The notes beneath the pieces are model-generated. The model did not search any database, had not been told where the DNA came from, and saw nothing but the letters and a program-made list of their open reading frames with translations. 64,000 nt of DNA from a virus (taxonomy: Duplodnaviria; Caudoviricetes): positions 64,001 through 128,000 of IMG/VR virus record IMGVR_UViG_3300031857_023573; one strand, 5' to 3'. Made by a program: the position numbers and the translations under genes. Shown here piece after piece: positions 29,607 to 50,482 of this stretch. The first letter of the stretch is position 1. Every line of letters starts with the position of its first letter.

Positions 29607-30680
29607 ATGATGTCCTGTAAAATAACATATATTTATGGTCTATTTGAAATTGGTACTGAAGAGGAGATACGATATGTTGGTAAAACTGACAATCCATCTA
29701 AAAGACTTAGAGACCACAGAAATGATAAGAATTCAACAAGTCACAAATCTTGTTGGATCAAAAGTGTTTTCAATAAAGGAGGTGATATTGGATTAAAAGT
29801 TTTTAAAGTAGTCAACCATGATAATTGGAAGGATGAAGAAATTAAATTTATAAAAGAAATGTCGACTAAATTCAAACTTGTAAATTTGACCGATGGTGGT
29901 GACGGTCGCATGGATAATATTTATAACAGAACCTTTGCTGAGTGTAAACTGTGGTTAGAATCTAATAAACCCGAGTGGATAGTAGGAATGAAAGAATACA
30001 AAAAATGGTCAAAAATGAATGATTTTCCAGACTTTTTACCGAAGGCACCGAATCGTGTTTTTACTGACTGGACCACTTGGGGCGATTATTTGGGAACAGG
30101 AAGTATTCATACGATGAAGAGAAAAGATATTTATCTAAGTTATGAGGAAGCGAAAAAATACTTGAAAGAAAACTTCGATTTAAAAAGTTCAGTTGACTTT
30201 AAAAAAGAAAAAATTCCAGTATTTATTCCCAAAAAGCCCTATAATGTTTATACTTGTTGGAAAGGATGGCATGAATTTTTAGATTATGTTCCCTTTAAAA
30301 GAATAAATGCTGAATATCTTGACTATGATTCTGCCAAGTTATGGATAAGTGAAAATTTTGGTCCTATAACATCAAAAAATTATAGAGAAAAATCCAAAAA
30401 TAATGAGATATCAATTTTTTTACCGAGAAAACCGGAGAGAGTCTATGAAAATTTCAAATGGGGTGAATTTCTATCTACTAACGGCAGGAAAAAGAATAAA
30501 AGTTTCTATTTGAGTTACAATGAATCTGTGAGTATTGTTCATACTTTGAATATAAAAACCAATGCAGAATGGCGAAAATGGTGTAAAAACAAACCAAAAG
30601 AATTTGTTAGAATACCATCTTCGCCAAGTACTGTTTATAAAGGAGAGTGGAAAAACTGGTTCGAATGGTTAGGAAATTGA
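29607..30680 (+). CDS. GIY-YIG homing-type endonuclease with four integrase-repeat-like units
   Basis: YIYGL..IRYVGKT..RLRDH; repeats YxEAK...PxxPxxVYxxWxxWxxFLG. Confidence 0.85.
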   Translation: MMSCKITYIYGLFEIGTEEEIRYVGKTDNPSKRLRDHRNDKNSTSHKSCWIKSVFNKGGDIGLKVFKVVNHDNWKDEEIKFIKEMSTKFKLVNLTDGGDGRMDNIYNRTFAECKLWLESNKPEWIVGMKEYKKWSKMNDFPDFLPKAPNRVFTDWTTWGDYLGTGSIHTMKRKDIYLSYEEAKKYLKENFDLKSSVDFKKEKIPVFIPKKPYNVYTCWKGWHEFLDYVPFKRINAEYLDYDSAKLWISENFGPITSKNYREKSKNNEISIFLPRKPERVYENFKWGEFLSTNGRKKNKSFYLSYNESVSIVHTLNIKTNAEWRKWCKNKPKEFVRIPSSPSTVYKGEWKNWFEWLGN

Positions 30681-31403
30681 ACCTTTAGATAGAACTTCTT
30701 TATTATAATATTGTTCGAATCCATCCAATTGTTTTTCTACACTATCATTTTTATCTAAACCAATAATCTCATCTATTAAACCAAAGTCGAGAGCTTCTTT
30801 TGAATTAAACCACCTGTCTCTTCTTGATGACTCTAACATATCTTCAAAAGTTTTTCCACAATTTTTAGCAAGTAATTTAAAGAGTATATAGTTATACTTG
30901 TGTGACTCAAGATGTGATATAGTAGAGTCTTGTATATTTCCACCATATTGTGATGATACCATATGAGTCATAACTTTTGAATAAATCAATGATGAACGCT
31001 TTCCTTTAGTCCCAGAGCTTAATAGCACCGATCCCATACTAGCACACATTCCGATATTAACAGTTGCAACATCACAAGAGATATAGTTCATTAAGTCAAC
31101 TATACCGAGTCCACATAGAACTGAACCACCAGGTGAATTAATGTAAAGAGTAATATCTTTCTTTTCAACAGAATCTAGAAAAAGTAACTGTGCTTGAACA
31201 ATATCTGACATGTGTTGATCAACTGGACCAGAAACCCACAAAATACGGTCTCTCATCAAGCGACTAAAGATATCTATTTGCGTGGCGCGCATTTCACGCT
31301 CCTCCAAGATATAAGGAGTCAATCCATTTTCATATTGATCAAGTGCAGTAGAAGATACACCCTCACTTTTTGCAAATTTTCTAAATTCTTTTCCTAAGTT
31401 CAT
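30669..31403 (-). CDS. clpP: ATP-dependent Clp protease proteolytic subunit
   Basis: DIFSRLMRDRI, YINSPGGSV, GMCASMG, VMTHMV, RDRWF. Confidence 0.95.
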   Translation of the reverse strand: MNLGKEFRKFAKSEGVSSTALDQYENGLTPYILEEREMRATQIDIFSRLMRDRILWVSGPVDQHMSDIVQAQLLFLDSVEKKDITLYINSPGGSVLCGLGIVDLMNYISCDVATVNIGMCASMGSVLLSSGTKGKRSSLIYSKVMTHMVSSQYGGNIQDSTISHLESHKYNYILFKLLAKNCGKTFEDMLESSRRDRWFNSKEALDFGLIDEIIGLDKNDSVEKQLDGFEQYYNKEVLSKGSIS

Positions 31404-31463
31404 AAATATAAATTTTTTATTAAAAATTATAAGTACGAATTAGATGAAAGTTGAAGGAATAAA

Positions 31464-31913
31464 TTAAATAACATGAGAAAGATACTGACCTTCTTTTAAT
31501 TTAATTTTTTTACAGCCAATTTGATTCTCAAGTTCCTCAATCCAATTTTTCCAATTATCATTTAATAGTTTAATAAATGATTCTGAACTATTTCTATCTT
31601 TGTATCGTTGAATATACTCGTCTTTTATTAAGATATCTGGATAAACGAGTGTGAAATCTATTTTATTATTAACAAGAGCCTCTCTAACTTCTTTATGTGA
31701 TGAAACCATAATAACATCTACCTTACCGATATTACTTTTGATATGTTCAATGTAATTTCTTGGGAAATCAGATTTATCAAATTTACTTGAATCAGAATCT
31801 AAAACAATTTTATCACTATTTGTTCTGAAAAAGTGTGATTTTCCACATCCTGGGAAAGCAGATATAACTAGAGTATCTTTTGTATTATAATCTGTATAGT
31901 TTTTTAATTTCAT
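31464..31913 (-). CDS. Small P-loop kinase-like protein
   Basis: VISAFPGCGKS Walker A. Confidence 0.7.
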   Translation of the reverse strand: MKLKNYTDYNTKDTLVISAFPGCGKSHFFRTNSDKIVLDSDSSKFDKSDFPRNYIEHIKSNIGKVDVIMVSSHKEVREALVNNKIDFTLVYPDILIKDEYIQRYKDRNSSESFIKLLNDNWKNWIEELENQIGCKKIKLKEGQYLSHVI

Positions 31914-31914
31914 A

Positions 31915-32553
31915 TTAGTATTTATAATTTTTAGTTGCCACCCTGCTTTTTATCTGACTTTTTGTATTATTGTTTTCAGTAGTTCCAACTTCTAACTTAC
32001 CACTTTTTCTTTTGAGAACTAATCCTTCTACAACAGGAGCTTTTGTAAATTCACTAAAAATACTGGAAAAACCACTATTATAACTTTTCACTCTATAGAT
32101 ATTTTCAGTGATTGAATACAAATATTCTTTGTCTGAATTATGGGTACCATACAAGTCATCTAAAATACTGACTCTTTCGCTAAAAGTAGATCCTACTAAA
32201 TAATTAGAATCACAAACTAAAATATCAAAAATAATCAATTTATGATTGAAACTTTCACCAGTTTCATCTTGTTTATTTTTATTTAAATATTCTCCGTTGA
32301 TCACAAGCCATTTTCCTGGCTCACATTTATAAATTGAATTAATTTCAGATTGAGATAAGTTGAAATTACTTAATCGAGAGTTATGTCGATTCATAACGAC
32401 TGTTTGCACACCGTTAGTATAAATTGTAGTATTGCTGCCATTTAATTTTGGCTGAGCAATTAGTGAATTATTATCCCAGAAGCTCAAATCTTCTGGATTC
32501 ACTGCATTTTTTGGACGTGGTGGAAAGATGTAAGAATATTTTTCGTACTTCAT
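31915..32553 (-). CDS. Stand-alone ATP-dependent ligase nucleotidyltransferase domain (RNA/DNA ligase-like)
   Basis: QPKLNG (I), INGEY (III), IIFDIL (IIIa), EGLVLK (IV); no OB domain. Confidence 0.75.
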   Translation of the reverse strand: MKYEKYSYIFPPRPKNAVNPEDLSFWDNNSLIAQPKLNGSNTTIYTNGVQTVVMNRHNSRLSNFNLSQSEINSIYKCEPGKWLVINGEYLNKNKQDETGESFNHKLIIFDILVCDSNYLVGSTFSERVSILDDLYGTHNSDKEYLYSITENIYRVKSYNSGFSSIFSEFTKAPVVEGLVLKRKSGKLEVGTTENNNTKSQIKSRVATKNYKY

Positions 32554-32574
32554 AAGTACAAATATAAGGAAAAG

Positions 32575-32919
32575 TTATTGTGAAGTAAAATATTTCAAAG
32601 CATTTGATAAACTTATTACAGACTTTTTAAGTTCTTCACCTCTATCATAACCTTCAGAATCGGCATAGATTTTAGCATTTTCGGAAGAAATCTCAACTGC
32701 ATCATCAGCACTTACATTATCATTATTTACACTTGCATACATTTCGGCAAGACTAGATTGAACCTTTAACTCGGCTTCTTTTTGTGTCAAAGTGTATTTT
32801 TCAGAAATAAATTTATTAAACTTCATTATTTCATCTGCACTTGAAAGAATAGCAACTTTAACTTCCTCGTCAAAAGGTAGTAATTTTACTAATGTTTTGA
32901 TATCTTCAATATTGTTCAT
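32575..32919 (-). CDS. Hypothetical protein
   Basis: 114-aa helical ORF. Confidence 0.6.
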   Translation of the reverse strand: MNNIEDIKTLVKLLPFDEEVKVAILSSADEIMKFNKFISEKYTLTQKEAELKVQSSLAEMYASVNNDNVSADDAVEISSENAKIYADSEGYDRGEELKKSVISLSNALKYFTSQ

Positions 32920-33038
32920 ATCTCACTATTAAATTGTTCAAGAAGATTCTTTTCATTCCAATCTCGTTGAAGTTCCGTGTATAAGAGGTATTTTTCTGCA
33001 GAATCAAACCTTACATCGTCGAAAAGAAAATCATCCAT
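32916..33038 (-). CDS. Small ORF not in the track (40 aa, MDDFLFDDVRFDSAEKYLL...)
   Basis: Follows a TATATTTG promoter; its stop overlaps the next start (ATGA). Confidence 0.55.
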   Translation of the reverse strand: MDDFLFDDVRFDSAEKYLLYTELQRDWNEKNLLEQFNSEI

Positions 33039-33074
33039 AATATTTGTATTTATTTCTACAAATATAGTTTAAAA

Positions 33075-33866
33075 TTAAATAGAATACAAGTATTCAAATC
33101 TAAATTGAAACTTTTTTAAAGTATCTGGATTTAAATCAAAGTAGTTTGGAAGCCAACCTTCCAGTCTTGACCACTCTTCCCTTGTAACGTCACCAACAGG
33201 ATAAGAGTCACAAAGTACTTTACATACCAATCTTTCTTCAGACTTTGCCCACTTAAATATTACATTTTCACCCATTTTAAACTTCTCAGATCGTGTAGTT
33301 GCAGTTCTTAACCCTAGTTTTATTGCTTCAAATGTTGTATAGACACCTCTTTCTAGTAATTCATGTCTAAATTGACCAGGTACTAATTGACTATGACCTA
33401 ACTTATTATGCTCATAGCTCATCGATAGCTCTTTAGCATTTTTTAGCTCGGTTGGTTTAGGTACTATTTTACCTAGTTCATTATGATATCCGAACTTTTT
33501 AAGAAGAATATCACACAGAAAATCGTAAGTTTTTGGTGCTTTTTCTTTTAATTTAGCTCTATCAGTTCCATAACCGCCTTCTGAAAATATTATAGTCGCA
33601 CCAAATAGAAGTTCGTCTAAGATTTTGTTTATATCTTCTAATATTTTCTTTTTATTACTTTCAAACTCCTTATCTGTATAATAGGCACCTTTATCTGTAG
33701 ATGGTTTCTTTTTTGTTCTAATACCGATTGTATTAGGCTCGTTTCTTATAATGGCCTGACCACCCAAACCAGATCTTTGATCATTATCACCATAGACATA
33801 GATTTTCTGAGGATTTTTTGCAACATCTTCTATACCCCAGAATCCTTTAAAAACTTGTATCATCAT
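33075..33866 (-). CDS. Two-domain protein: N-terminal YVYGDN/GGQA domain plus C-terminal ASCH-like domain
   Basis: IYVYGDNDQRSGLGGQAIIR.EPNTIGIRTK; AIKLGLRTATTR. Confidence 0.55.
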   Translation of the reverse strand: MMIQVFKGFWGIEDVAKNPQKIYVYGDNDQRSGLGGQAIIRNEPNTIGIRTKKKPSTDKGAYYTDKEFESNKKKILEDINKILDELLFGATIIFSEGGYGTDRAKLKEKAPKTYDFLCDILLKKFGYHNELGKIVPKPTELKNAKELSMSYEHNKLGHSQLVPGQFRHELLERGVYTTFEAIKLGLRTATTRSEKFKMGENVIFKWAKSEERLVCKVLCDSYPVGDVTREEWSRLEGWLPNYFDLNPDTLKKFQFRFEYLYSI

Positions 33867-34227
33867 TGAGAACCTTTTTTAGCTGAAGGTCTCTTAGTTT
33901 TTGTTTTATGGCTGTATCGCTTACCCCATCTGAAATAACTTCGAGAACCTCATTACATCTATTTATTAGATTTTCAAAATTATTAAAATTCACAACTCCA
34001 GGATTTGCCGAATATTTCGAGCCTTGCCAGATAACGTCTACCTTATTAATTTTATCAGCAAGGATCCAAGTGGTAACATTATCAAACGAGAACTGGTGTC
34101 TAATTGATTCGAGTGTTTCTCTAGCCTGGTTGCGAGTCAGATCAGTAATATCAACATAGATTACGAATATAGGATTTTCTAAATTTAAACTACTCATTTC
34201 TTCTTGGGTTTTAAGACCATGTGCCAT
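33847..34227 (-). CDS. Hypothetical protein
   Basis: 126 aa, overlaps both neighbours. Confidence 0.6.
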   Translation of the reverse strand: MAHGLKTQEEMSSLNLENPIFVIYVDITDLTRNQARETLESIRHQFSFDNVTTWILADKINKVDVIWQGSKYSANPGVVNFNNFENLINRCNEVLEVISDGVSDTAIKQKLRDLQLKKVLNDDTSF

Positions 34228-34739
34228 CTAGAACCCTCAAGTTTTGGCATCGTTTCTGGAACTCCAAGTGACTCTACAAGTGTTGCAAACTTCAACATAA
34301 CCAACTGACCTTTGTCTGCCATATGATGTTGACGACCTTTGAGTAGAAGTGACAATTTTACTTTATTTCCTTCTTCTAGAAACTCAGAAGCCTTTTTAGA
34401 TTTGACTTCTAAATCATGGTCTGCTATATTGACAGAAAGTGAAATTTCTTTAACTTCAGATTTTTTTTGATTTTTCTTATTCTCTTTTTCGCGTTTTTCA
34501 ACTTCATATAAAAATTTACCGTAATCTTCAATTTTAACAACTGGTGGATTGGCATTTTCCGATATTAGAATAAGGTCTTTTTCATTTGCCTCGGCAAGTT
34601 TTGAAGCTTCATATGAAGACATTATAGCTCCTTGGCCTATTTCTCCAGTCACACGAACTTGTGGAAATCTTACTTCACCATTGATTTTGTGTTTTCTCTC
34701 TTTTAATGGAGGTCTTTTTCGATTATTGTTATTGTTCAT
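34194..34739 (-). CDS. infC: Translation initiation factor IF-3
   Basis: INGEVR..QVRV, DLILIS....PPVVKI.DYGKFLYE, VKEI, DHDLEVK, GNKVK, KGRQ. Confidence 0.95.
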   Translation of the reverse strand: MNNNNNRKRPPLKERKHKINGEVRFPQVRVTGEIGQGAIMSSYEASKLAEANEKDLILISENANPPVVKIEDYGKFLYEVEKREKENKKNQKKSEVKEISLSVNIADHDLEVKSKKASEFLEEGNKVKLSLLLKGRQHHMADKGQLVMLKFATLVESLGVPETMPKLEGSRWHMVLKPKKK

Positions 34740-34980
34740 AAGTTATTACTTCAAATGCAGAAAGTCCCTGAGCTATCTCTGGACTTAAAAATTAAGATAT
34801 TTCTTTTTATATTGACTTCGGCCATTTAAAAATGAGAATTTGGTTGATAGATAGTATCAACTGTGACCAAACTATTTAGATTTCTATTCATCTTTAAGAT
34901 ATAACGCCAATTATATTATCTAAAATTTAAATTGTTTAAAAATTTAAAAAAATATTAATGTATATATTGGGAAAAATAAA

Positions 34981-35315
34981 GAAGAAAAGAGGAACTTCTG
35001 TCAAGTACGGTCGAAATCCGAGAACCTAATTCTTGACTTTTAGTGGTCTTACCACTTGGGATTGCCTTTTAATGGTTTCATCAACCTTGGTTTAGCAGTG
35101 TTACCATTCTGCTTATTTTTCTTCCTTAACAGTAGTTTTTAAATTGTTTCGTTTAGTCTCACACTGTTATAGAGTCTAAATTTATCGGCTTTTTTATAAT
35201 TACCTATAAACGTTACCGAACCGCTTGTAGTTCACCTTTTATTTTGTTAAATATGTTTACTATTTACCACGATGGTTCATGATTTTTCATCAAAGGCGTA
35301 AACTTATTAACTCAT
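34981..35315 (-). ncRNA. Unassigned structured RNA with tmRNA-like pseudoknots; strand inferred from context
   Basis: No ORF; several helices, two H-type pseudoknots and a short GELQAVR-stop frame; directly downstream of smpB. Confidence 0.6.
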
Positions 35316-35376
35316 TACTTACCATCATATAATACAAGACTACTTCAAATAGTAAAAATTCATCTTGTAATTTTTG

Positions 35377-35808
35377 TTACAAATCATTTCTTCTTAGATC
35401 TCTATCAGTATCTCTTTTCTTAATATCTTGTCTTTTATCCCAGTCTTTTTTTCCACGACAAACTCCCATTTTTACTTTGAATCTACCATTAACAGTAAAG
35501 ACTTCAAGTGGAATTAAGGTGATACCTTTAGTCTCGGTCAATTTTGAGATTTTAGAAATTTCTTTTTTATTTAAAAGTAATTTTTTATCTCTAAGTTCAT
35601 CGTGATTTTGAAGTGATGATTCTTTATACTTTGCGATACTAAGGTTTTTAACCCAGAGTTCACCATCTTTAAAATAAATGAATGAATCTCCGAAATTAAG
35701 ACTGTTTGATCTTAAAGACTTCACTTCTGAACCAACAAGTACTAGTCCAGCTGTGAAGTCTTCGATCACTTGAAAATTAAAATATGCTTTTTTGTTTACG
35801 ATCTTCAT
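35377..35808 (-). CDS. smpB: SsrA-binding protein SmpB
   Basis: NKKAYFNF, AGLVLVGSEVKSLR, H...R.KKLLL, GKKDWDKR; probable start MKIVNKK. Confidence 0.95.
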   Translation of the reverse strand: MKIVNKKAYFNFQVIEDFTAGLVLVGSEVKSLRSNSLNFGDSFIYFKDGELWVKNLSIAKYKESSLQNHDELRDKKLLLNKKEISKISKLTETKGITLIPLEVFTVNGRFKVKMGVCRGKKDWDKRQDIKKRDTDRDLRRNDL

Positions 35809-35852
35809 AATAATTGCTAATATAAACAAAAATATCTAAATTAAAAATTATT

Positions 35853-37163
35853 TTAATATCTATATTGTTCAGATTTGAAAGGTCCTTGAGAACTAACTCC
35901 AATATATTTTGATTGTTCCTCGGTGAGAATATCTAGTTCGCATCCGATTTTCTCAAGGTGTAAAAATGCTACTTTTTCATCTAAATGTTTTGGTAGAGTA
36001 TAAACCTTATTTTCATATTTATCCGAATTAGTCCACAATTCTATTTGTGCGAGAGTTTGATTAGTGAAAGAGTTACTCATTACAAAAGATGGGTGACCAG
36101 TTGCACATCCAAGATTAACTAATCTACCTTCAGCTAGAATAATTATATCTTTGTTATCTATTGTGTACTTATCAACTTGAGGTTTGATAGTGTCTTTTGT
36201 CGATCCGTAATTTTTATTAAGCCAGTTCATGTCTATTTCGTTGTCGAAGTGACCAATATTACAAACTATAGCATTGTGCTTCATCGACTTAAAATGTCTG
36301 TCGATTATGATATTTTTATTACCAGTAGCGGTGACAATAATGTCCGCCATTTTGACAGCAGTATCCATTTTTAATACCTGATATCCATCCATTGCTGCTT
36401 GAAGTGCACAAATAGGATCAATCTCAGTGATAATTACTCTAACACCTTGTGAAGAGAGTGACTGTGCTGAACCTTTACCGACATCTCCATAACCAGCAAC
36501 AACCGCAACTTTACCAGCCATCATAATATCAGTTGCTCTTCTTATTGAATCTACTAGTGATTCTCTACAACCATACTTGTTATCAAACTTTGATTTTGTT
36601 ACAGAGTCATTGATATTTATTGCTGGTGTATAAAGAGTGCCATTTTTTACTCTCTCATGTAGTCTCAAAACACCAGTCGTAGTTTCTTCGGATAATCCTT
36701 TGATTCCATTAACAAGTTCTGGATATCTATCAAATACCATATTAGTAAGATCTCCGCCATCATCTAAAATCATATTGAGTGGTTCTCCACCTTCAAAAGC
36801 GAATAGTGTTTGTTCAATACACCAATCAAACTCTTCTTCAGACATACCTTTCCAAGCATAGACGGGAATACCAGCCTTTGCGATGGCAGCGGCAGCATGA
36901 TCCTGAGTTGAGAATATATTGCAAGAAGACCAACTTACCTCAGCTCCCAAATGTTTTAGAGTTTCTATTAGAACTGCTGTTTGAATTGTCATATGTAAAC
37001 ATCCGGCAATTCTGCTTCCTTTTAATGGTTTAGTGTCACCATATTCTTTTCTAAGAGACATTAGTCCAGGCATTTCTAGCTCAGCCAGTGCAATTTCTTT
37101 TCTTCCCCATTCTGATAAGGAAATGTCTTTTACTTTAAATTTTTGTGATAAAGTTTGATTCAT
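35853..37163 (-). CDS. ahcY: S-adenosyl-L-homocysteine hydrolase
   Basis: [48 protein letters not shown]. Confidence 0.97.
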
Positions 37164-37174
37164 TTTTGTTTTTT

Positions 37175-40161: not shown

Positions 40162-43100
40162 ATGGGAATTAGGAGCTCTTTTGCTACTGTAGCTGACCAA
40201 ATAACTGCATATAATAAGAATATTGTCGATACATTAACAAAAATTAATGCGCTTACAACTACAAAAGAGCCTTCTGTTGATATTCAAATTATCGATGTTG
40301 AGGGTGTACTTAGAAGCTACAGTCTACCATCTTTTACTTTCTTAAAAACTGAAATTGAAAGACTTAATAATTCTTTGAATTCACTTTACAGTATCGATAC
40401 CGGAGGTGCACTAATTCAAACTACTACAACTAATAAGTTCAAAAAAATAATTACTGTAGACCTAAACAGAGAACCTAACCCTATTAATGATCTTGGTGCA
40501 ATTACTCAATTTAGATCTCAAAAAAACTGGTTCTTTGACTCAATGCTTAATCCAGCTCTTTTTGTTGAGTTTGATTTAAGTGGTAAAATCGAAAATAATG
40601 TAAGAAAAATTCTATCAAGAAGATATATCATTGATTTTTCTAAAGACTCCGATGGTAATTTTACAAATCTAGGTCAGTCTGCTATAAATAGCTTTAATCA
40701 GCTCTATCGTGGTAAAAGTGATATTGATATTCAAGATTTTGAAACTTGGCATAGAACAACACCTGGTGTTGTTAGTCCACTTGAACCAAATTACGATGAA
40801 CAAGTATTTGATATTGACCCTAATTCTGTTTTATTTGATGGGATGTTTAACGTATTAACAATTGAAGAGGATACCTTGAATAGAAAACTTTGGTATCATC
40901 TTAATACCCTTGACTATCTTATAAATGACACACTTGAAATTAGGCAATTATCAATTGATGATGAACTCATAATAAATCAAGAAGTATCTAATACTCGTTA
41001 CAAAGTTGTAGAAATTTCAACTACTGAATCTAATTACAGAATAAGAGTAGAAAGAATTGAAGGTCTTCAACCCATACCGGTTGGTATAGGTACTTTGAAG
41101 ATATACTCACCAGTAGTTTATTCAAAAAGAGTTAAAATTAGTGTTGGATACAATGAGAGAGATGTGATTTTTATTAAACCAATGAATGCCGATAATAATC
41201 TTATGGCAAAAGATTGGTCTAGAGGCACTGGTTTCTACACGAATGATTTAAGATTAGTTTCAAACAGTCCTGAAAATGGTTCTACTATGGAACAATTTTA
41301 CATAGACTATGTTTATGATTACGGTGAAGTTTTACAGGACTTTGTTGCTAAAAAGACACCAAATAAGTTAGCTGGTACGCCTAACATAGCTGTTCTGAAT
41401 ACAGATAATTTTAAAGTTGTTCAAATAAATAAACACCTTACTGATACGCCTGATGCTAACTTAATTAAAGTAAAACACAATTATTCGATTTCTTTAAAAA
41501 ACGAAATTAGACAACTACAAGATGCAATTGATGCGAGAAATACAAAGGCCAAAACAAATCGATTTACATCAAAGGCATCTGAAAATCAATTTAAGTTAGA
41601 AATAAAAGAGCTCGAGAACAAAAAATCTTCTAAGCAAAAGCTTTTAGCAACAACAACTCAAGAGATTATCGATCTATCGAGAACTCCAACCTCAAAGGTT
41701 GAGCCTAAATATAGACTACGTGGTTTCTGGAATATTCCAGAGGCGGTAATAACAAGAGGCACTCTACCTCAGGAAATTGTACAATTTAGAGTTCAATATA
41801 GATATATTTCTAAAGATGGTAGAGAACCAGTAGTTGAGACTTTTAATATTACTCAAAATAATCAACAGAAAACTGCAGCTTTCTCAAACTGGAATGAGTT
41901 TAAAACTGATGTTAGAAAAAGAACACTAGACAAAGCAACGGGTACTTATACTTGGCAAATTGAGGATCTAGAAAGTGCAGACACACCTAATATTAATCAA
42001 ATTGACATCGCTATAAATGTTAACGAAAAGGTTGAGATGAGAGTAAAATCTATTTCAGAAGTTGGTTGGCCAGAGTCTCCAGTTGAATCTGAATGGAGTG
42101 ATATTCTTACAGTTCAGTTTCCAGATGACTTAAATAATGTCTTAAATGATAATGATTTCATATTAAAAGAGGCCTCTAAAGAAGAACTTAAAGTTAGCAT
42201 GCAAACCGAACTTACAGCTAGAGGATTGGATGAACACTTATCTGAGACAGCGGTAATAAACAATAAGACTTTCCATCATACTGCTGAAAAAATTGTTTCT
42301 GGATTTAAAGATGAAAATGGTGTCAATCTAGACCTATTTGAGTATCTAAGTAAACTAGAAAATAGAGTAAGAGCACTCGAAGAAAGAATCAAGAGAGCTA
42401 AAGGTGAACTCGAAGTTGTTATTATTAGAAGTAATCAAGAATTCGTCGTATCTAATAACTCAGAGACAGCTTTCAATGTTGAACTTGAAGAATATCTTGA
42501 AGCATACACAGCGGCCGGCGCACCAACAGGTAGAATATATGAAAACAATGTTTATGTCATAAAAGACTTTGCAATCGTTCTAAGAAACGTAGCTGTTGAT
42601 TCAGCTCTTGGACTTTTATCGAATAGAGATTATGCAGGTTCGAGTATTTATAATACTGCTGCTCCTCAGGTATTCTGGGTTAATAGCCAAGATGAACTTC
42701 TTTTCAGTGACGTGACAGGAACAAGTAAAACTCAACTACCAAATCAGTACATTTGGGCTTTAAATTATGACTCTATTACACAAACTAGTTTGGTAAAATT
42801 AAGTGAGAATATTGGTAACTCATTTACCACATTGAATAATAATTCATTGACTAATGTGCTTAGTCTTACAGAATACAATATAGGATATTCAGATAACTCT
42901 TCATTATCTTTCTTATCTAGCAACAATTCGTTGCTTGATACTTCAAAGTGGGTAGATACTGTTGAAACAGTTGCATCTACTGAGAAACTACTATCAAGTA
43001 TACATCCAGCTATTCCAGATTTGCAAAATCTTGTTGAGTCAAATGAAGATAAAGTTAAGAGTATAGCTGGTGGTCAAGAAGTTATAATACCACTTCACAT

Positions 43101-43326
43101 CTACTTTAAAATGAACTCATTAAACTCAACTAAGACTGGTAAGAACTACGAATATATTGACTTGAATTTGAAACAAAACACAATTAAACATATCAAGAAA
43201 GTTAAATTCTTTGTTGAAGATGAAAGCCAAAATAGGCCATTTATATTTAGTGTGAAATTCACTTTAAATAGAAGTAAAGTTGCATTTGCTTCTAAGCCTA
43301 AGAACTATCAAACAAAAATTAAGTAA
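40162..43326 (+). CDS. Large hypothetical virion protein
   Basis: 1054 aa with coiled coils, AATATATA upstream. Confidence 0.6.
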   Translation: MGIRSSFATVADQITAYNKNIVDTLTKINALTTTKEPSVDIQIIDVEGVLRSYSLPSFTFLKTEIERLNNSLNSLYSIDTGGALIQTTTTNKFKKIITVDLNREPNPINDLGAITQFRSQKNWFFDSMLNPALFVEFDLSGKIENNVRKILSRRYIIDFSKDSDGNFTNLGQSAINSFNQLYRGKSDIDIQDFETWHRTTPGVVSPLEPNYDEQVFDIDPNSVLFDGMFNVLTIEEDTLNRKLWYHLNTLDYLINDTLEIRQLSIDDELIINQEVSNTRYKVVEISTTESNYRIRVERIEGLQPIPVGIGTLKIYSPVVYSKRVKISVGYNERDVIFIKPMNADNNLMAKDWSRGTGFYTNDLRLVSNSPENGSTMEQFYIDYVYDYGEVLQDFVAKKTPNKLAGTPNIAVLNTDNFKVVQINKHLTDTPDANLIKVKHNYSISLKNEIRQLQDAIDARNTKAKTNRFTSKASENQFKLEIKELENKKSSKQKLLATTTQEIIDLSRTPTSKVEPKYRLRGFWNIPEAVITRGTLPQEIVQFRVQYRYISKDGREPVVETFNITQNNQQKTAAFSNWNEFKTDVRKRTLDKATGTYTWQIEDLESADTPNINQIDIAINVNEKVEMRVKSISEVGWPESPVESEWSDILTVQFPDDLNNVLNDNDFILKEASKEELKVSMQTELTARGLDEHLSETAVINNKTFHHTAEKIVSGFKDENGVNLDLFEYLSKLENRVRALEERIKRAKGELEVVIIRSNQEFVVSNNSETAFNVELEEYLEAYTAAGAPTGRIYENNVYVIKDFAIVLRNVAVDSALGLLSNRDYAGSSIYNTAAPQVFWVNSQDELLFSDVTGTSKTQLPNQYIWALNYDSITQTSLVKLSENIGNSFTTLNNNSLTNVLSLTEYNIGYSDNSSLSFLSSNNSLLDTSKWVDTVETVASTEKLLSSIHPAIPDLQNLVESNEDKVKSIAGGQEVIIPLHIYFKMNSLNSTKTGKNYEYIDLNLKQNTIKHIKKVKFFVEDESQNRPFIFSVKFTLNRSKVAFASKPKNYQTKIK

Positions 43327-43329
43327 TAA

Positions 43330-46300
43330 ATGAAGAGTTTTTCACTTTTAAGAACGAATGTTGGTCTAACTGCCAATGTTAAAGTGGTTTGTGATTCAAA
43401 TTACAATTTGTATCTTGAGAGTATTGATTCTGCTCCGGAATTGTCGATTAGTCGATTAAAGAAAATGCAATTCAACAAAAATAACTTTTTTGACGAATTA
43501 GTGCCTTACTTTTTTAAGGACTTTCCGGTGGATATAGCTTATCAAGTAATTTATTATGAAGATGTTGATAATATGTCTCAAGATTTTGCAAGTCAATATG
43601 ACGACACTTATAACATGGGCGCTAGAAATATAGTTGATAATAAAAATTACCCAGAAGAATACGAATATTTTGCACCACTATATGTTTTTAAGGCTCAAAT
43701 TCCAAAATATTTTATAATTTTTAGAGTAGATGGACCTGGTCTTGAAGATTTAGATCAATCTAATTTCAGACAAGATTTTTTAAAAAAATTCAAAACAGTT
43801 AAGATTTTTGACTTGACTAAAAACACAGCACTTGGCGAGTGGATAGAGAGAAATTTCAAAAACAATATCTCTTTTCCAAACTCATCTCTTGAAATAGACT
43901 TCAGAAATTTAGAATTTTCAAAATGGATAGGTATTGACTATGAAACTGGTGGATTTACATACAAGTCTAGTTTTTTAGAAAACTCGCTTGAAAATGAGAA
44001 TACACTTTTTGATTTTGAAAGATTTTTCTTTGATGGATATCGAGTAAACAAACTTATACATCCTCAAATTGTAAACTTTTCTTTCCTATTTGATGATACA
44101 CCAGCAACACCAAACAATTTAAGAAAATGGTCACTAAATAGATATTCGGGGTTTTATCTAGATGATTTGGAATTAATTGATACTATCACACCATTTACAT
44201 CTCCTAGACTTAAAACAGATGTGGAAATATTAGAAGAGAATGTCTTGTATTCACCATCTGGTGACCCATTTGAATTTGGGTTTCAAGATGGTCAAGATAA
44301 CTGGGTAGAATGGAGAGGTAACTTTTACAAAGTTGAAAAATTTACCGAAAAAACTGAAAATGTTCTATCAAAAACTATAAGTAAAAACACACCGAAAAGA
44401 ACACTTAATAGAAACGTTAAAAAGACCTCTGTTTCTAAATCTCTAGGTCAGGAAACACTTCAAATAGAAGGTTATAATACTGTAGAAACTGTTAAATATA
44501 GAATTATTTCAGAATACGAATTAGTAGGTCTAGAGTCTGAATTAAATCAAAAAACTTGCTACGTTGACCAAAATTGTCTAATTTTAAGACTAGATGGTAC
44601 AAATTATGTGGTTGACGAATTTGATTTTGCTGATATCAACGTGATTCAAATTGGGGATAGATTTCACAATTTAATACTTGATGAAGACGGAAATCTTAAA
44701 ATTTTATCAGATTATGGATTTCTCTGGTCTCAAAATTATAGATTTGAATATTTCATAAATGGTGCACAACCAGGATATAACAACATTATTGATTTAGAGA
44801 TTAAAACTGGTAATAATCCATTTGGCTTTAAAATTTACAGATTGAAGTTTACTGATATTAAGGATTTTGACACCAATATTGTTGATACCGAGTTTTCAAA
44901 ATTTGAATACGAAAAGCTTGATGATGTCACACTTACTGAAGAACCAAAGATGTATACTACAGATTTGAGAGTAAATTCAAATCCAGCTCCTTTTAATGAC
45001 TACTTCTACAAAGATCAAGTTTATAACATGCCTTGTTCGTCTGACTATACTGCAAACTTAGAGACATTCAGAATAGTCGATGGTGATCTTAGCGAACTCT
45101 GGAGAATGAATCCGGTACATTGTAGATTTGGATATCAAGGTTCGATCTCCACTGGAGATTATCCATATTTATTGAATAATAATGATATACATGAGAATTT
45201 TAATAGAAGTGCTGATACTTTTGAATCAGTTCCTAATAGAAGAGTGAGAAACTTGGATTATTTCTATTCAATAAATTCTGGCGACCCATCTTACTTACAT
45301 CATTCACTACATATTGAAAGAAATTATGAAAACATTCAAGATACTTCTTTTAGATTTGAAGTAGATAAGTATTTAAATTTACACAATTATACACCAAGTG
45401 GTGGTACTATTTCAACTACTTATTCTTCAGATTATTTTAGTTACTTTTTCGGAAGTACGCAAAGTTTTTTGAACGGTCAAATTCTCAAAAAAGTAGAAAA
45501 GTGGTCTTTATTCGATAAGGGTGACAAGGCAAACCCAAATACAACATTATTCAAAGGACTTAAATTTAAGATTTTTGAAGTAGAGAAAATTATAAAAGGA
45601 GACCTATCACTTGATGAGGTCAACCTTTTTACTTCAAATTCTTTTGAGGACTATAAATTTTCTGTATTATTAAGTCAGAATTTACAAGGTGTTGATATTA
45701 ATGGTGAACTTTACGATACCGTAGAATGGGGAGAATTTCAAGCTATTCAGGATAATTTTGGATTTTTATCGTTTAGAACTTCTGATAGTGCAACACCATC
45801 AAATGTTGTAGTAGGTGATAGAGTTAAGATTAAGCAGTACTATCCAAAAATGGAATTTACTTATGATGACTTAGCAACTGTCACTCATGTAGGTACACTA
45901 AGTTATGGTGGTTATGGATTTGAAACTAATAAAGAGTTTTTATTTACAACTGCTAGTGTAGGTGGTTCAACTGGCAGTGGTACTACTTTTAGCATAGACG
46001 TTGGATCTGCCTATAGTGCATTTCCGAACATAGTAATTAGTCTAACTGTCTTTGCTGGCCATGGTGTTACAAGTCCAACTGATTTCACTATTATAGACTT
46101 GAATACATCTAGTGGACCAGCTACTGACTGGATTGGACAAACTTTAAACTTTTCACCATTCAGTCCAACTCAACTTATTGCTACTACTGCTTTACCTCTT
46201 TCAACAAATGCATTCACAGATGGTGTATTGGGTGACATAGGAGTTTCAGCAAGTGTAATTCAAACACCAACTGCATCAAATACTAGTGGTTATTACAGTG

Positions 46301-48009
46301 TAAATTTTGAGTGGAAAGTTATTAGAAATTGGGAATTAGATACTCAATATTACACAAACGATTATGTATTATATGATGACGTTCTTTATAGAGTCACTAA
46401 TAATAGTTTAGTTGAGGATCCTAATGAAGATCCCACGACTTTGACTGGTTTTTATACAGCAACAACATCAAAACAACCCTTTTGGTCACCAAATGCATCT
46501 TATGCTGAGGGTGATTGGTGTTTTAGACAAGGTGATTTTTATGTAAGAACTAGTGTTGGAGATGGAATAGATTTTTATAATACAGTCAGTCTTTATCAAC
46601 CAGGTGATATAATTAATTGGAAAGGTAGATTTTATGAGTCTAAACTAGAGTCTATAAAAAAGACACCTCAGAAAAATAAGAGAAATAATTTTATATCTGA
46701 AGATTTTGAAAAGTATTGGATAGAAGTTCCAAATCCAAAAGAATGGTATGCTATAAATAGTCTACAAGATTTTACACCTCCATCTAATAGATGGGAACCA
46801 ATTCCAATTTGGGATCCAGCATCTGAATACTCACAGAATCAATATGTTGTTTATGACGAATCACTTTATCAAGCAAATAGTAATATCCTACAGGTAGAAG
46901 GTGACGGAATAACTGATAGCTTTCAGACACCTGATGTCAACACACTATGGACTAGAATTTTTAGCTTTAGACAAGACTCGGAAGCTCAATATTCACCAGT
47001 CAATAACTCAGTGATTAGAATTGGAGAGAGTTATTATTTAAATACTTTTAGTAGTGGCAGCACACTTGATAGTGGTATTACAATTTACATAAATAAAAAA
47101 TGGAAAAATATACTAGTAAACATAAATATAAATGACGGAACTACTTTAAATATTGATAATTCTATAAGAGATCTATTATATAAAGACATAAATACCAGAC
47201 TTACCGCCGCTTCATTTATAAGACAATTCAATGATTTAGATACTAAGTATGACTTTGCAGATTATACATCATACGTAATAATTGAAGAAGATGGTACTAT
47301 TTCAAAGTATAATTTCAATAATGATATAGAAAATTTACCCTATTTACTTCTATGTGAAGAGCCTGATCAGTTTGAATTGAAAAATAATACTTTAAGTTAT
47401 TCACCTATTAATATTCCTTCAACCGAAATAAAATCAATAAGATATCTTGTAAATGGTAAAATCGATAGTATAGAAAGACTTAACTATTATAATGAAATTC
47501 CACTCGCTTGTGAGATTGAAAGAAATGTTGATGAAATTGGATTTGGTAAAAACTATAATGGCAGGAGAGATATTACAGTATCAAGAGATGCTAGTGTTAA
47601 ACCAAAAAGTAATGCCAATATATCCGAAACTTTTTTTAGACACAGTGGTAACTATATGCCAATATTCTATGACTTGCAACTTTTCAAACCAATTGGTGAG
47701 TTCGATACAAATTATGGCAACTATAAATTTGATGAGAACTTAACATTTTTTGGAATAATGCGTCAGAGAATCATTACAAAAGTAAATAGAAAAGAAAATA
47801 TACTTAAACTTAGAAATAATGATAGTTTAAAGTCAATATATCCAATGTTAGACGAATTCGGATATACAGTTCTTGACTTCTTTATATTCAAGTCAACTTG
47901 GGATTATTTTTATCACGTAGAGTGTTTGAATTTGAATATTAACTTACCTATTATTGATAAGAAGCTGATCTTTAATAGATTCAAAAATAAAGAAATAACT
48001 AGAAAGTAA
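43330..48009 (+). CDS. Very large virion protein with four CBM5/12-like aromatic repeats
   Basis: WELDTQYYTNDYVLY, WSPNASYAEGDWCF, YNTVSLYQPGDIINW, WDPASEYSQNQYVVY. Confidence 0.65.
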   Translation: MKSFSLLRTNVGLTANVKVVCDSNYNLYLESIDSAPELSISRLKKMQFNKNNFFDELVPYFFKDFPVDIAYQVIYYEDVDNMSQDFASQYDDTYNMGARNIVDNKNYPEEYEYFAPLYVFKAQIPKYFIIFRVDGPGLEDLDQSNFRQDFLKKFKTVKIFDLTKNTALGEWIERNFKNNISFPNSSLEIDFRNLEFSKWIGIDYETGGFTYKSSFLENSLENENTLFDFERFFFDGYRVNKLIHPQIVNFSFLFDDTPATPNNLRKWSLNRYSGFYLDDLELIDTITPFTSPRLKTDVEILEENVLYSPSGDPFEFGFQDGQDNWVEWRGNFYKVEKFTEKTENVLSKTISKNTPKRTLNRNVKKTSVSKSLGQETLQIEGYNTVETVKYRIISEYELVGLESELNQKTCYVDQNCLILRLDGTNYVVDEFDFADINVIQIGDRFHNLILDEDGNLKILSDYGFLWSQNYRFEYFINGAQPGYNNIIDLEIKTGNNPFGFKIYRLKFTDIKDFDTNIVDTEFSKFEYEKLDDVTLTEEPKMYTTDLRVNSNPAPFNDYFYKDQVYNMPCSSDYTANLETFRIVDGDLSELWRMNPVHCRFGYQGSISTGDYPYLLNNNDIHENFNRSADTFESVPNRRVRNLDYFYSINSGDPSYLHHSLHIERNYENIQDTSFRFEVDKYLNLHNYTPSGGTISTTYSSDYFSYFFGSTQSFLNGQILKKVEKWSLFDKGDKANPNTTLFKGLKFKIFEVEKIIKGDLSLDEVNLFTSNSFEDYKFSVLLSQNLQGVDINGELYDTVEWGEFQAIQDNFGFLSFRTSDSATPSNVVVGDRVKIKQYYPKMEFTYDDLATVTHVGTLSYGGYGFETNKEFLFTTASVGGSTGSGTTFSIDVGSAYSAFPNIVISLTVFAGHGVTSPTDFTIIDLNTSSGPATDWIGQTLNFSPFSPTQLIATTALPLSTNAFTDGVLGDIGVSASVIQTPTASNTSGYYSVNFEWKVIRNWELDTQYYTNDYVLYDDVLYRVTNNSLVEDPNEDPTTLTGFYTATTSKQPFWSPNASYAEGDWCFRQGDFYVRTSVGDGIDFYNTVSLYQPGDIINWKGRFYESKLESIKKTPQKNKRNNFISEDFEKYWIEVPNPKEWYAINSLQDFTPPSNRWEPIPIWDPASEYSQNQYVVYDESLYQANSNILQVEGDGITDSFQTPDVNTLWTRIFSFRQDSEAQYSPVNNSVIRIGESYYLNTFSSGSTLDSGITIYINKKWKNILVNININDGTTLNIDNSIRDLLYKDINTRLTAASFIRQFNDLDTKYDFADYTSYVIIEEDGTISKYNFNNDIENLPYLLLCEEPDQFELKNNTLSYSPINIPSTEIKSIRYLVNGKIDSIERLNYYNEIPLACEIERNVDEIGFGKNYNGRRDITVSRDASVKPKSNANISETFFRHSGNYMPIFYDLQLFKPIGEFDTNYGNYKFDENLTFFGIMRQRIITKVNRKENILKLRNNDSLKSIYPMLDEFGYTVLDFFIFKSTWDYFYHVECLNLNINLPIIDKKLIFNRFKNKEITRK

Positions 48010-48707
48010 TGAGAAGAACATACATTTCACCAGAATTTGATTATAAAAAGGTATTTGGTACTTTTAATATGAAAGAGGAGTCTAGTTTTTTTGGTTCAAA
48101 AATGTTAGAAATTGAAGACTCATTGCAACTTCAAGATCAATCAATTGTTTACTATCAAAATTCAAAAGGTGAACAAATAGATTTAGATATAGAAAAATTA
48201 TCACCACCCATCGTCTATAGTGTTTCAGAAGATTTCAAGGCAAATCACACGTTAGTTTTAGATGATTCACAATCTGATTTTTTAAGAAATACTACTACAA
48301 GATACATCTTAACTATAAATCTAGAAACAATTTTAGAAAACTTTTTATTTGCTACTCTAAAGCAATATAGAACTTTTGACGGTGTTAAAAGTAGCATGTG
48401 TTATAGTGGTGATATAAACTTTTCATTGAAACAATATGTTATAAAAAATGTTGTTGATAGATATAAATTTGATAGAGTAGAACTTTATTTAAATTATGTT
48501 GATTTGAGAGATCAAAACATCAGAAGATATAACAACACTTGGGCAATTAATCCATCAGCTATTAGCATTGAATCAAACAAGTTAAAGAATGTTCAGACTG
48601 AGACTGAATATGATTTTTCTTCAATAAGACTGACTTTCAATCAACAAAAAAGTAGTCAGCTTTTTTCATTTGAATATTACTTCAAACTTTTCTGGGAAAA
48701 ATTATAA
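48009..48707 (+). CDS. Hypothetical protein
   Basis: 232 aa, coupled to the upstream gene. Confidence 0.6.
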   Translation: MRRTYISPEFDYKKVFGTFNMKEESSFFGSKMLEIEDSLQLQDQSIVYYQNSKGEQIDLDIEKLSPPIVYSVSEDFKANHTLVLDDSQSDFLRNTTTRYILTINLETILENFLFATLKQYRTFDGVKSSMCYSGDINFSLKQYVIKNVVDRYKFDRVELYLNYVDLRDQNIRRYNNTWAINPSAISIESNKLKNVQTETEYDFSSIRLTFNQQKSSQLFSFEYYFKLFWEKL

Positions 48708-48715
48708 ATTTATAT

Positions 48716-49084
48716 ATGGGTGATCTCACAAATATAAATTTACTAATATTATTTAAAATATTTAAAGATAGACCACATCATTTATCTAGATTCCTTATTG
48801 AGAATGGTGCTTTTAATCAGAGTTTCCTTGATAGACTTAATAAAAACGGAAAATTGTCAGAAATAAAAAATATTGAAGAAATAAAAAAAGACTTTGATAA
48901 TATTGATGATATGAAGGAATTTTATTCTTCATTAATTAACTCACAAACACCTAGAAAAAAGACTAGTTCTGAAATAACTACAGAAATTAATACTAAAATT
49001 TCGACTGCCATAAGTAATGAAAATTATGAAGAAGCTGCCAGACTTAGAGATTTTCTCAATAAATTAAATCAAAAAAAAAAATAA
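48716..49084 (+). CDS. Protein with C-terminal UVR coiled-coil motif
   Basis: AISNENYEEAARLRD. Confidence 0.7.
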   Translation: MGDLTNINLLILFKIFKDRPHHLSRFLIENGAFNQSFLDRLNKNGKLSEIKNIEEIKKDFDNIDDMKEFYSSLINSQTPRKKTSSEITTEINTKISTAISNENYEEAARLRDFLNKLNQKKK

Positions 49085-49152
49085 TAAGTGAGTTAAAAAC
49101 TTATGACTTAACTGGACTATAAACACTAATTAATCTTTTAAAAAATAAAAAT

Positions 49153-50268
49153 ATGTTAGAATTAGAAGTAGAAACACAAGAAATTGTTGAAAATGAAACG
49201 GACTTTTGGACCCGACTAGAATATGAAGAAGCCAAAAGACGTGGTAAAAAAGTAAAAACAACTGATCCAGAGTTATTGAGACTTGAAAAAATATATGATG
49301 AATTTATTTATCAAATCCCAGTAAAGAATTCAATCGTCAACGCGAAGTATGAAGGCGTGATATCAAATCAACACTGTTTTTCAGTTGTTGGATATAAAGA
49401 CTATATTCGAGTTGAAGAAAGGGCATCTGAAAGTAAGTATTTGAAAAATACTAATGAAGGAGACATGATTGACGTTTTGATTACACATGTTAATAATGAT
49501 ATCTTTATGATTGAAGGTTCAATTGCGAATATTTACGAAAATGCAGCACACCTATCACTCAAGTCACTTGATGAAGATGTGGTTATTATGGCAAATGTGA
49601 AGTCAATAAATCCAGCTGGATATGATATTGAAATCGTACACGAAGGAATTACACTTCCTGGTTTTATGCCAAACACACTTGCAGGTATAAATAAACTTTA
49701 TGATCCAGATTCAATCGTTGGTAAAACATTTGAAGTTATGGTTGAATCTTTCTCAAAAGAAGAAGGTACTTATATTGTAAGTCGTCGTAAATATTTGAGA
49801 ACCTTAATCGCAGATGCTATTGACTCACTTAATCGTGATGAAGTTTACACAGGTCACGTAACCGGGACAACTCCTTTTGGAATCTTTGTTGAATTCAATG
49901 AGTGTTTGACTGGTATGATCCACAAGGCTAATGTTCTTGAAGAATGGCAAGACCGACTCTCTGAAATTAAACCAGGTACTCAAATACAGTTTTATGTAAA
50001 AGAAATTGTAAAAGAGAAAATTATCCTGACTCAAATTCTAAGAGAAACCCTTTGGGACACTATTAAAAACGGTCAAGTACTTGATGGCATGGTACGAGAT
50101 ATCAAACAATTTGGTGTACTTGTATCGCTAGATCAGGAAACTATGGGACTTATTCACACATCAGAGCTTGAAAGACTTGGTAAGAAATTCCAAGACAAAC
50201 AAGAACTAAAAGTTAAAGTTCTGGCAGTAGACCGTCAAAATAGAAAGATTTTCTTGACAGTCGCCTAA
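49153..50268 (+). CDS. rpsA: Ribosomal protein bS1-like protein (about four S1 domains)
   Basis: GFMP, IVSRRKYL, GHVTGTTPFGIFVE, GMIH, GMVRDIKQFGVLV, GLIHTSEL, VKVLAVD. Confidence 0.82.
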   Translation: MLELEVETQEIVENETDFWTRLEYEEAKRRGKKVKTTDPELLRLEKIYDEFIYQIPVKNSIVNAKYEGVISNQHCFSVVGYKDYIRVEERASESKYLKNTNEGDMIDVLITHVNNDIFMIEGSIANIYENAAHLSLKSLDEDVVIMANVKSINPAGYDIEIVHEGITLPGFMPNTLAGINKLYDPDSIVGKTFEVMVESFSKEEGTYIVSRRKYLRTLIADAIDSLNRDEVYTGHVTGTTPFGIFVEFNECLTGMIHKANVLEEWQDRLSEIKPGTQIQFYVKEIVKEKIILTQILRETLWDTIKNGQVLDGMVRDIKQFGVLVSLDQETMGLIHTSELERLGKKFQDKQELKVKVLAVDRQNRKIFLTVA

Positions 50269-50286
50269 TCACAGTTAAGTAAAAAT

Positions 50287-50316
50287 AAAAAAACCAGTCA
50301 TATGACTGGTTTTTTT
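50287..50316. terminator. Bidirectional terminator between convergent genes
   Basis: Palindrome aaaaaaaccagtcatatgactggttttttt. Confidence 0.88.
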
Positions 50317-50317
50317 A

Positions 50318-50482
50318 TTAAAATTCAATTTTTGAATTCTTTCTGGAATATGTTTTTTTACTTTTAAAAGTCTGATTTTTAAAAATATTATATTTACCAC
50401 AGGCAATCAATTCAGATCTGTGACGAGATTTTTCTGACTTAATAATTTGTTGTTTTGATATTGTAATTTTAGAAGCAGTCAT
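50318..50482 (-). CDS. Small basic protein, ArfA-like C-terminus
   Basis: 54 aa; IFKNQTFKSKKTYSRKNSK; own TATATTTG promoter. Confidence 0.5.
   Translation of the reverse strand: MTASKITISKQQIIKSEKSRHRSELIACGKYNIFKNQTFKSKKTYSRKNSKIEF

Follow-up and report, generated by a model that had tools for sequence, protein, structure and literature searches.

The question raised by this locus is whether a phage which encodes several host-type translation factors within a short distance uses them as one functional kit, or whether it has come by them separately. The locus lies in a stretch of 64,000 nucleotides (nt), called here the window, which covers positions 64,001 to 128,000 of the IMG/VR viral record IMGVR_UViG_3300031857_023573. 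A first-pass annotation of the window had described a coherent toolkit for translation initiation and ribosome rescue, made of infC (translation initiation factor IF-3), smpB, a four-domain bS1-like protein (S1), an ArfA-like peptide and clpP. The presence of infC, smpB, the S1 gene and clpP was confirmed by profile searches, all five open reading frames (ORFs) lie within 20 kb as described, and the genes stand outside their usual bacterial operons, with no rpmI or rplT beside infC. The set is nevertheless not a module, because it is spread over both strands, unrelated genes are placed between its members and these occur unevenly in the relatives; it is made of two core genes (S1 and SmpB) and of accessory ones, which are inherited and apparently transcribed separately. 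We consider it quite likely that the stretch is part of a huge and widespread freshwater phage of a host without Shine-Dalgarno (SD) pairing, most likely one of the Bacteroidota, which carries several separately inherited and separately transcribed host-type factors for translation and proteostasis.

The window is phage DNA. Profile searches recognised tail-fibre-like genes, with fibres of collagen and lectin type, a PhoH gene with an intein and phage peptidase genes. The PhoH-like gene (19854-21725, minus strand, 623 amino acids [aa]) is broken by a LAGLIDADG homing-endonuclease region and looks like an intein-bearing gene. With such structural and phage genes in the window, and with relatives which are IMG/VR viral contigs of 130-597 kb, the five genes do not belong to a host chromosome or to contamination. 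The S1 gene was found on 33 IMG/VR viral contigs of up to 597 kb, 32 of which carry at least part of the conserved cassette upstream of it, and several of these contigs are 385-597 kb long and rated 95-98% complete. Scans of the viral contigs with single SmpB or S1 sequences gave no matches, and alignment queries were needed. A 4.2-kb stretch from the IF-3 gene to a sigma-factor gene is near-intact in sequencing runs of 17 studies, mostly of lake, freshwater, estuary and drinking water; there is no RNA run among its listed holders. The 20-kb stretch had no match among GenBank phages by megablast.

Initiation without SD pairing, which the first-pass annotation had proposed, holds for the window: an SD core was found at -16 to -5 of 2 out of 51 start codons, which equals the background rate of 3.7%. 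The leaders of the window genes are A/T-rich. According to PMC9976891, the ribosomes of Bacteroidia ignore SD sites. The window also encodes a sigma factor of extracytoplasmic function (ECF) type, and the best model for it in NCBIfam is of the Bacteroidetes type. Boxes of the form TAnnTTTG stand 13-30 nt before the starts of the genes at 31915-32553, 38247-40073, 35377-35808, 50318-50482 and 51836-52507, and these we take to fit the -7 promoter element of Bacteroidota. In two ligase genes the box begins 13 nt upstream and, because it ends 6 nt before the ATG, it suggests that their mRNAs are leaderless or nearly so. Other genes, many of them large or tail-like, have instead an A(A/T)TATATA box 12-35 nt upstream. 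The translation-factor genes thus appear to be under differing promoter types and to be transcribed separately. The SD-less starts, the TAnnTTTG boxes, the sigma-factor model and the SmpB of one relative together point to Bacteroidota as the host phylum.

The S1 protein and its cassette

The S1 gene (49153-50268, plus strand) encodes a bS1-like protein of 371 aa, in which N-terminal helices are followed by two degenerate OB domains and then by two canonical S1 domains. In the AlphaFold model (mean predicted local distance difference test score, pLDDT, of 76) the helices span residues 15-29 and 39-50 and four OB domains span residues 61-123, 145-210, 231-293 and 309-370; searched with Foldseek, this model is matched best by 30S-bound E. 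coli bS1 (9gut_B, E 4e-22). This bears out the four-domain description given earlier. The profile of the phage S1 family is collinear with residues 61-345 of E. coli bS1, that is with its domains 1-4, and Pfam S1 recognises only domains 3-4 of the phage protein. With collinear domains, the first two of them degenerate, the protein belongs to bS1 by its tandem-OB architecture. It is not an rpsA equivalog by score, since it reaches 80-98 bits against NCBIfam cut-offs of 368-900, and its 371 aa are short of the six-domain length seen in the bS1 frames of the searched Bacteroidota genomes (580-780 aa), on which the phage profile itself gives at most 61 bits.

S1 is the best conserved gene of the set and a core gene of the phage clade. 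More than 120 S1 clusters were found on contigs of up to 611 kb, all of them 357-376 aa long and 60-99% identical; the phage copies are mutually 46-99% identical, and the mean column identity is 71% across 14 diverse phage members. The N-terminal helix carries a nearly invariant Phe18.

This architecture matches the part which anchors bS1, namely an N-terminal helix and OB1-OB2 followed by RNA-binding OB domains: in bS1 the helix anchors the protein to uS2, OB1 and OB2 bind no RNA, and the RNA-binding OB domains come next (PMC10123108). In the mechanism which we propose, the N-terminal helix and the two degenerate OB domains of the phage protein would attach at uS2 to the 30S platform in the manner of bS1, and the two canonical S1 domains would capture the A/U-rich, SD-less phage leaders, so that initiation would be biased to phage mRNAs. 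Binding to the 30S subunit through uS2 and a preference for phage mRNAs are proposed here from architecture and from the model. A complex prediction of S1 residues 1-215 with uS2 of Flavobacterium johnsoniae (RS2_FLAJ1) gave 0.27 against a mark of 0.32, with no controls, and was used neither way.

Four co-directional genes precede S1 (40162-49084, plus strand) and encode proteins of 1054, 1559, 232 and 122 aa; the 122-aa protein has a UVR motif. The order 1054-1559-232-122-S1 is kept in 33 out of 36 related loci. The 1054-aa protein matches phrog_29329 and the 1559-aa protein contains CBM_5_12; for both, the further leads are weak (scores below 0.9) and suggest structural proteins or proteins of the tail fibre or tail tip. 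The cassette is preceded, at 27 nt from its first gene, by a phage-type TTAATATATA box. A (T)AAACTT box is found about 50-65 nt upstream of the S1 start, in the spacer 49085-49152 and in the same spacer of loci L001-L036; it is kept in most relatives, and between it and the ATG there is often TTGTAACT and an A-rich run. In this box S1 may have a promoter or control element of its own.

Pieces of the S1 gene are also present in metatranscriptomes, as contigs of 151-343 nt with 0-1 mismatches in four freshwater libraries from four studies; this is consistent with expression and is not proof of it. Most of the 20 kb is without cover in the metatranscriptomes examined, which is uninformative. In one relative (locus L001, 11215-13562, S1 74% identical) S1 is followed by a gene for a 651-aa RNase R/II-like protein with RNB and S1 domains and then by a NUDIX gene. 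A link of S1 with RNA decay through this neighbour was considered and rejected, as the arrangement is confined to L001 and absent in the other 36 loci.

The rival explanation which survives best is that S1 acts off the ribosome, as an RNA chaperone, as a cofactor of a phage enzyme or as a virion protein made together with the tail-like genes; we regard this as less probable than action on the ribosome, with perhaps a modest chance of being right. Host S1 serves T4 RegB and Q-beta replicase. The phage protein stands at the end of a tail-like cassette headed by a phage-type promoter box, it is very distant from host bS1 and is without domains 5-6, and RNase R-like and NUDIX genes follow it directly in one relative. 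Al-Shayeb et al. 2020 (Nature 578:425; PMC7162821) left "on or off the ribosome" open for phage S1, and some phage enzymes do use S1 (PMC13157829). Set against this are the domain order, the degenerate N-terminal OB domains and the N-terminal helix, which match the ribosome-anchoring half of bS1, and the AAACTT box, which suggests that S1 has a control element of its own within the cassette. The RNase R neighbour is seen in only 1 of 37 loci, and bS21, which bridges bS1 to 16S rRNA (PMC10123108), co-occurs with the phage S1 in 15 of 32 records. Action on the ribosome, biased to SD-less phage leaders, stays the preferred role of S1.

SmpB, IF-3, ClpP and the DUF7230 protein

The second core gene, smpB (35377-35808, minus strand), encodes 143 aa from the ATG at 35808, or 150 aa from a TTG at 35829, and has a TAnnTTTG box 26 nt upstream. 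It matches the family over its full length (PF01668 173.9, TIGR00086 172.2 and NF003843 177 bits against cut-offs of 27, 119 and 130), and its basic C-terminal tail GKK..DKR..IK.RD..R is invariant in six phage SmpBs. The DKR motif of SmpB is needed for trans-translation. The gene is frequent among viral contigs, where more than 540 stretches match it. The phylogeny proposed as a check on the earlier annotation was made for SmpB with 80 cellular sequences: the window copy groups with three phage copies (Shimodaira-Hasegawa-like approximate likelihood ratio test, SH-aLRT, 97) and then with a fourth (89), it is at best 41-51% identical to cellular SmpBs, and the SmpB of one relative nests inside Bacteroidota. 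Judged from this clade and its identity of at most 51% to cellular copies, and from an S1 profile which scores at most 61 bits on Bacteroidota bS1 against the 46-99% identity among phage S1 copies, SmpB and S1 both appear to be old phage lineages and not recent captures.

SmpB and transfer-messenger RNA (tmRNA) are both encoded in two of the six near-complete relatives, at distant places in the genome. Searches of the window with ARAGORN and Rfam yielded no tRNA, tmRNA or any other known RNA. Among 60 viral smpB loci scanned with ARAGORN, the 29 closest have no tmRNA within 4 kb of smpB, and nine more distant ones have a tmRNA beside it. With a phage or host tmRNA, SmpB would free the ribosomes which are stalled on truncated messages arising from infection.

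The spacer between smpB and infC (34740-35376, minus strand, 640 nt) is free of ORFs longer than 28 aa. Within a GTCAAG/CTTGAC stem it carries GGATTTCGACCG, which resembles the 5' tRNA-like motif of tmRNA. The spacer was tried as a tmRNA and rejected: there is no Rfam match at E<=1 (the best matches, with E 4.6-9.6, are at chance level) and none with ARAGORN, its fold z-score is only -1.73, and no such spacer follows smpB in the relatives. It is possibly the leader of infC or a small RNA.

The infC gene (34194-34739, minus strand) starts at an ATG and encodes 181 aa with both IF-3 domains (IF3_N 74.7 bits, cut-off 26.9; IF3_C 90.7 bits, cut-off 34.8; Pfam); TIGR00168 places residues 14-181 in the IF-3 family with 163.8 bits against a cut-off of 60. 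In a comparison set of Bacteroidota sequences only, it is 31-51% identical to the IF-3 of 61 genomes. Its neighbours are the 640-nt spacer and smpB on one side and unknown ORFs and a DUF7831 gene on the other. As an accessory gene, IF-3 would top up 30S recycling and start-site proofreading.

ClpP is encoded by 30669-31403 (minus strand, 244 aa). It belongs to the family of serine proteases by its match to PF00574 (176.5 bits, cut-off 20.2) and by its catalytic Ser (GMCASMG), His (MTHM) and Asp (RRDRW), which align with those of S. pneumoniae ClpP (1y7o). The best NCBIfam ClpP equivalog gives 211.6 bits, under its cut-off of 361, and the model of the related head maturation protease is far weaker, at 57 bits. 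The N-terminal extension of about 26 aa begins MNLGKEFRKFAKSE. Two ClpP score classes exist in the relatives, at about 218-224 and about 177-194 bits; the window copy is of the lower class, and some genomes carry both. As a frequent accessory gene with an intact catalytic triad, ClpP would act as a protease together with a host or phage unfoldase. There is no tmRNA or tag sequence in the window to tie to it, and a link between ClpP and tmRNA is one that we only infer. The 3' end of clpP is overlapped by 12 nt, on the opposite strand, by a gene for a GIY-YIG domain protein (29607-30680, plus strand, 357 aa), which may be a homing endonuclease.

The fifth ORF (50318-50482, minus strand, 54 aa) has a normal stop codon, a TATATTTG box 30 nt upstream and the motif KSKKTYSRKNSK. 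Six true relatives of its product were found by exhaustive search, a seventh match being a repeat artefact, and 274 relatives, mostly of 50-60 aa, by profile search; the ORF is a real and conserved gene. PF23876 (DUF7230) is matched by 17 of 31 aligned members (best E 2.5e-6); the window copy alone is below detection and is 65-78% identical to proteins which carry PF23876, which places it in DUF7230. The window protein has no Pfam, NCBIfam or PDB match even at E<=10, and in PDB the sequence searches, whether made with the protein or its profile, were likewise empty. Across the family the pattern ..HKSKKxYxRKxKHK hardly varies. Of 32 related phage records 9 contain the family, with no linkage to S1, whose gene lies elsewhere in them, and of 201 Bacteroidota genomes only 2 do. 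The DUF7230 Pfam model run on genomes matched nowhere, including phage relatives which were later matched by the family profile, and is uninformative. DUF7230 is not mentioned in the literature searched.

The earlier description of this peptide as ArfA-like was not borne out. In a comparison with E. coli arfA and its relatives, which were fetched for the purpose, PF03889 was hit by only 1 of 31 members (E 0.026; gathering score 25.5 bits), and the window protein had no hit at E<=10. Alignment of DUF7230 with ArfA by hhalign gave a probability of 14% (P 0.002) over 19 columns, in which only the basic patch is aligned (KSKKtYtRKdKhK with KGKGSYxRKGKH). None of 300 column shuffles (mean 9.1) reached the score of 20.3, yet reversed ArfA scores 18.5. 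Because the reversed control is nearly equal, the likeness is best read as a low-complexity basic patch of 12 residues around an aromatic residue and not as evidence of common descent. The KGKGSYxRK-type basic segment of ArfA is said to lie in the empty mRNA channel; ArfA brings RF2 to non-stop ribosomes and is itself made from a truncated mRNA without a stop codon. DUF7230 proteins might conceivably act in an ArfA-like way.

The window also encodes an S-adenosylhomocysteine (AdoHcy) hydrolase (35853-37163, minus strand) and a D12-class adenine methyltransferase (57207-57959, plus strand), which suggests that the phage keeps a methyl-cycle flux for DNA methylation.

One kit or separate genes

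Co-occurrence was counted in 32 S1-bearing viral records, with a near-complete subset of six records which are at least 90% complete. SmpB is present in 24 of the 32 records and in all six near-complete ones; bS21 in 15 and four, ClpP in 13 and five, the DUF7230 protein in nine and four, and IF-3 in four and two, respectively. A tmRNA above the Rfam cut-off was found in 2 of the 20 records searched, both among the six. Between the members of the set stand genes for an RNA/DNA-ligase-like protein, DUF7831, AdoHcy hydrolase, thioredoxin, the ECF-type sigma factor and an NAD-dependent DNA ligase, and about 8 kb of large tail-like genes. SmpB, IF-3 and ClpP are side by side only in the closest IMG/VR relative (G234), within 6.5 kb and in the order of the window; elsewhere SmpB is separated from IF-3 and ClpP by hundreds of kilobases. 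S1 and SmpB stand 13-23 kb apart here, as they do in four of five large relatives, and 141 kb apart in one.

These data speak against the five genes as one functional kit, in which IF-3 and bS1 would govern start choice, SmpB and tmRNA would serve rescue with ArfA as backup, and ClpP would degrade the tagged products. Such a kit is favoured by the placing of the five ORFs within 20 kb, by the compact group in G234, by the 13-23 kb between S1 and SmpB and by the KxKxxYxRKxKH patch of the small protein, which resembles the aligned part of ArfA. It is hard to uphold when the genes are on both strands, interleaved with unrelated ones and apparently under differing promoter types, when their presence across related phages is uncoupled (IF-3 in 4 of 32 records against 24 for SmpB and 13 for ClpP) and the small protein lies elsewhere in the genomes of the relatives, when the ArfA identity fails, and when the window yielded no tmRNA, tag or ClpX. 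Co-operation of the five genes as one kit is improbable, and the coherent toolkit of the first-pass annotation is not supported. Of its wider proposal, that the phage controls both start choice and rescue, one part stands, as the genes are real, intact and phage-borne and the starts are SD-less; the coherent kit is not supported, and neither are the links of ArfA and ClpP to it.

Several points weigh against the reading which we prefer, that of a huge phage with separately inherited factors and an S1 acting on the ribosome. The host phylum is reached by inference only. For S1, hhalign against one Bacteroidota bS1 shifts the register by one domain and is ambiguous, domains 5-6 of bS1 are absent, and the N-terminal region has 60 residues against about 20 in E. 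coli bS1. The metatranscriptome runs were picked by the S1 gene and may contain DNA. For the other genes, no AAA+ unfoldase (ClpX, ClpA or ClpC) is among the window ORFs scanned, and SmpB is without a detectable tmRNA in four of the six near-complete relatives, as in the window.

The last of these points leads to a different explanation, that SmpB works against the host, perhaps along with the small basic protein, by sequestering tmRNA or plugging vacant mRNA channels and so shutting host rescue or a rescue-linked defence. SmpB might titrate the host tmRNA instead of aiding rescue, because no tmRNA is found in the window and in four near-complete relatives, and SmpB is kept in all six with tmRNA above the Rfam cut-off in only two. 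For mycobacteriophage DS6A, a tmRNA fragment has been proposed to act as an inhibitor which titrates SmpB (PMC4131195). In the six near-complete relatives (G001-G005 and G235), all with SmpB, no tmRNA passes the Rfam cut-off in the four with DUF7230, and DUF7230 is absent from the two with tmRNA, so that the small protein is found exactly where tmRNA is undetected. This complementarity may be a single phylogenetic split, and in the half-complete record G225 DUF7230 is matched weakly (E 1.2e-6) and a tmRNA match falls barely short of the Rfam cut-off (46.8 against 47 bits). The tail motif of SmpB for productive trans-translation is moreover invariant, and an action against the host seems to us unlikely.

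The same four and two relatives are touched by the reading that DUF7230 proteins are phage-made, ArfA-like ribosome-binding peptides, whose KSKKxYxRKxKHK tail would enter the vacant mRNA channel of stalled ribosomes, releasing them or blocking host rescue, and which would stand in for tmRNA in SmpB-bearing huge phages without a detectable tmRNA; this reading is also a long shot.

Comparison with known systems

Phage translation factors show viral takeover of protein synthesis, and Bacteroidota are useful in this respect as their ribosomes ignore SD. The window brings no new principle; it offers three leads, which are S1, SmpB and DUF7230. A four-domain core S1 of a widespread clade, seen in metatranscriptomes, is a good candidate for the on-ribosome question raised by Al-Shayeb et al. 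The core SmpB, with tmRNA often undetected, makes one ask whether the phage protein assists host rescue or hijacks it. The small basic proteins of DUF7230, a phage-specific family, can be assayed on stalled ribosomes.

Compared with ArfA (PF03889; E. coli b4550, 72 aa), the DUF7230 protein (54 aa) is likewise small and has a basic patch, KGKGSYMRKGKH in ArfA and KSKKTYSRKNSK here; unlike in ArfA, its family is phage-borne, and its N-terminal half is unrelated. The phage tmRNAs of the mycobacteriophage Bxz1 group and of Bacillus phage G (Hudson, Lau and Williams 2014, PMC4131195) are likewise a part of trans-translation; those phages carry the tmRNA, whereas this window carries the protein partner SmpB, with no tmRNA detected. 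Chen et al. 2022 (PMC9723584) described freshwater Bacteroidetes phages of up to 331 kb with bS21, Clp protease and chaperones. The phage studied here is likewise from freshwater and has a ribosomal protein and a Clp protease, and in 15 of 32 records this S1 is accompanied by bS21; the window itself yielded no bS21 gene, and PMC9723584 makes no mention of S1, IF3, SmpB or tmRNA.

A phage bS1 is on record as well (PMC13157829). With the bS1 of E. coli (9gut, 6h4n, 6bu8) the phage S1 shares the N-terminal helix and the tandem OB/S1 domains, of which a degenerate first pair precedes a canonical, RNA-binding pair; it differs in having four domains instead of six, an N-terminal region of about 60 residues and scores of 80-98 bits against 368-900 for rpsA.

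The closest comparison is with the huge phages (>200 kb) of Al-Shayeb et al., in which IF1/IF3, rpS1, rpS21, tmRNA and SmpB were reported; the gene set of IF3, rpS1, rpS21, SmpB and tmRNA is alike here. The S1-carrying huge phages rarely have SD sites, and interception of initiation and rescue was proposed (PMC7162821), so the general idea of phage translation genes and the link of S1 with missing SD sites are already published. What the present data add is a uniform core S1 of 357-376 aa with four OB domains in a fixed five-gene cassette, a core SmpB and a rare IF-3, together with the metatranscriptome pieces of S1 and the DUF7230 protein, which is unmentioned in PMC7162821.

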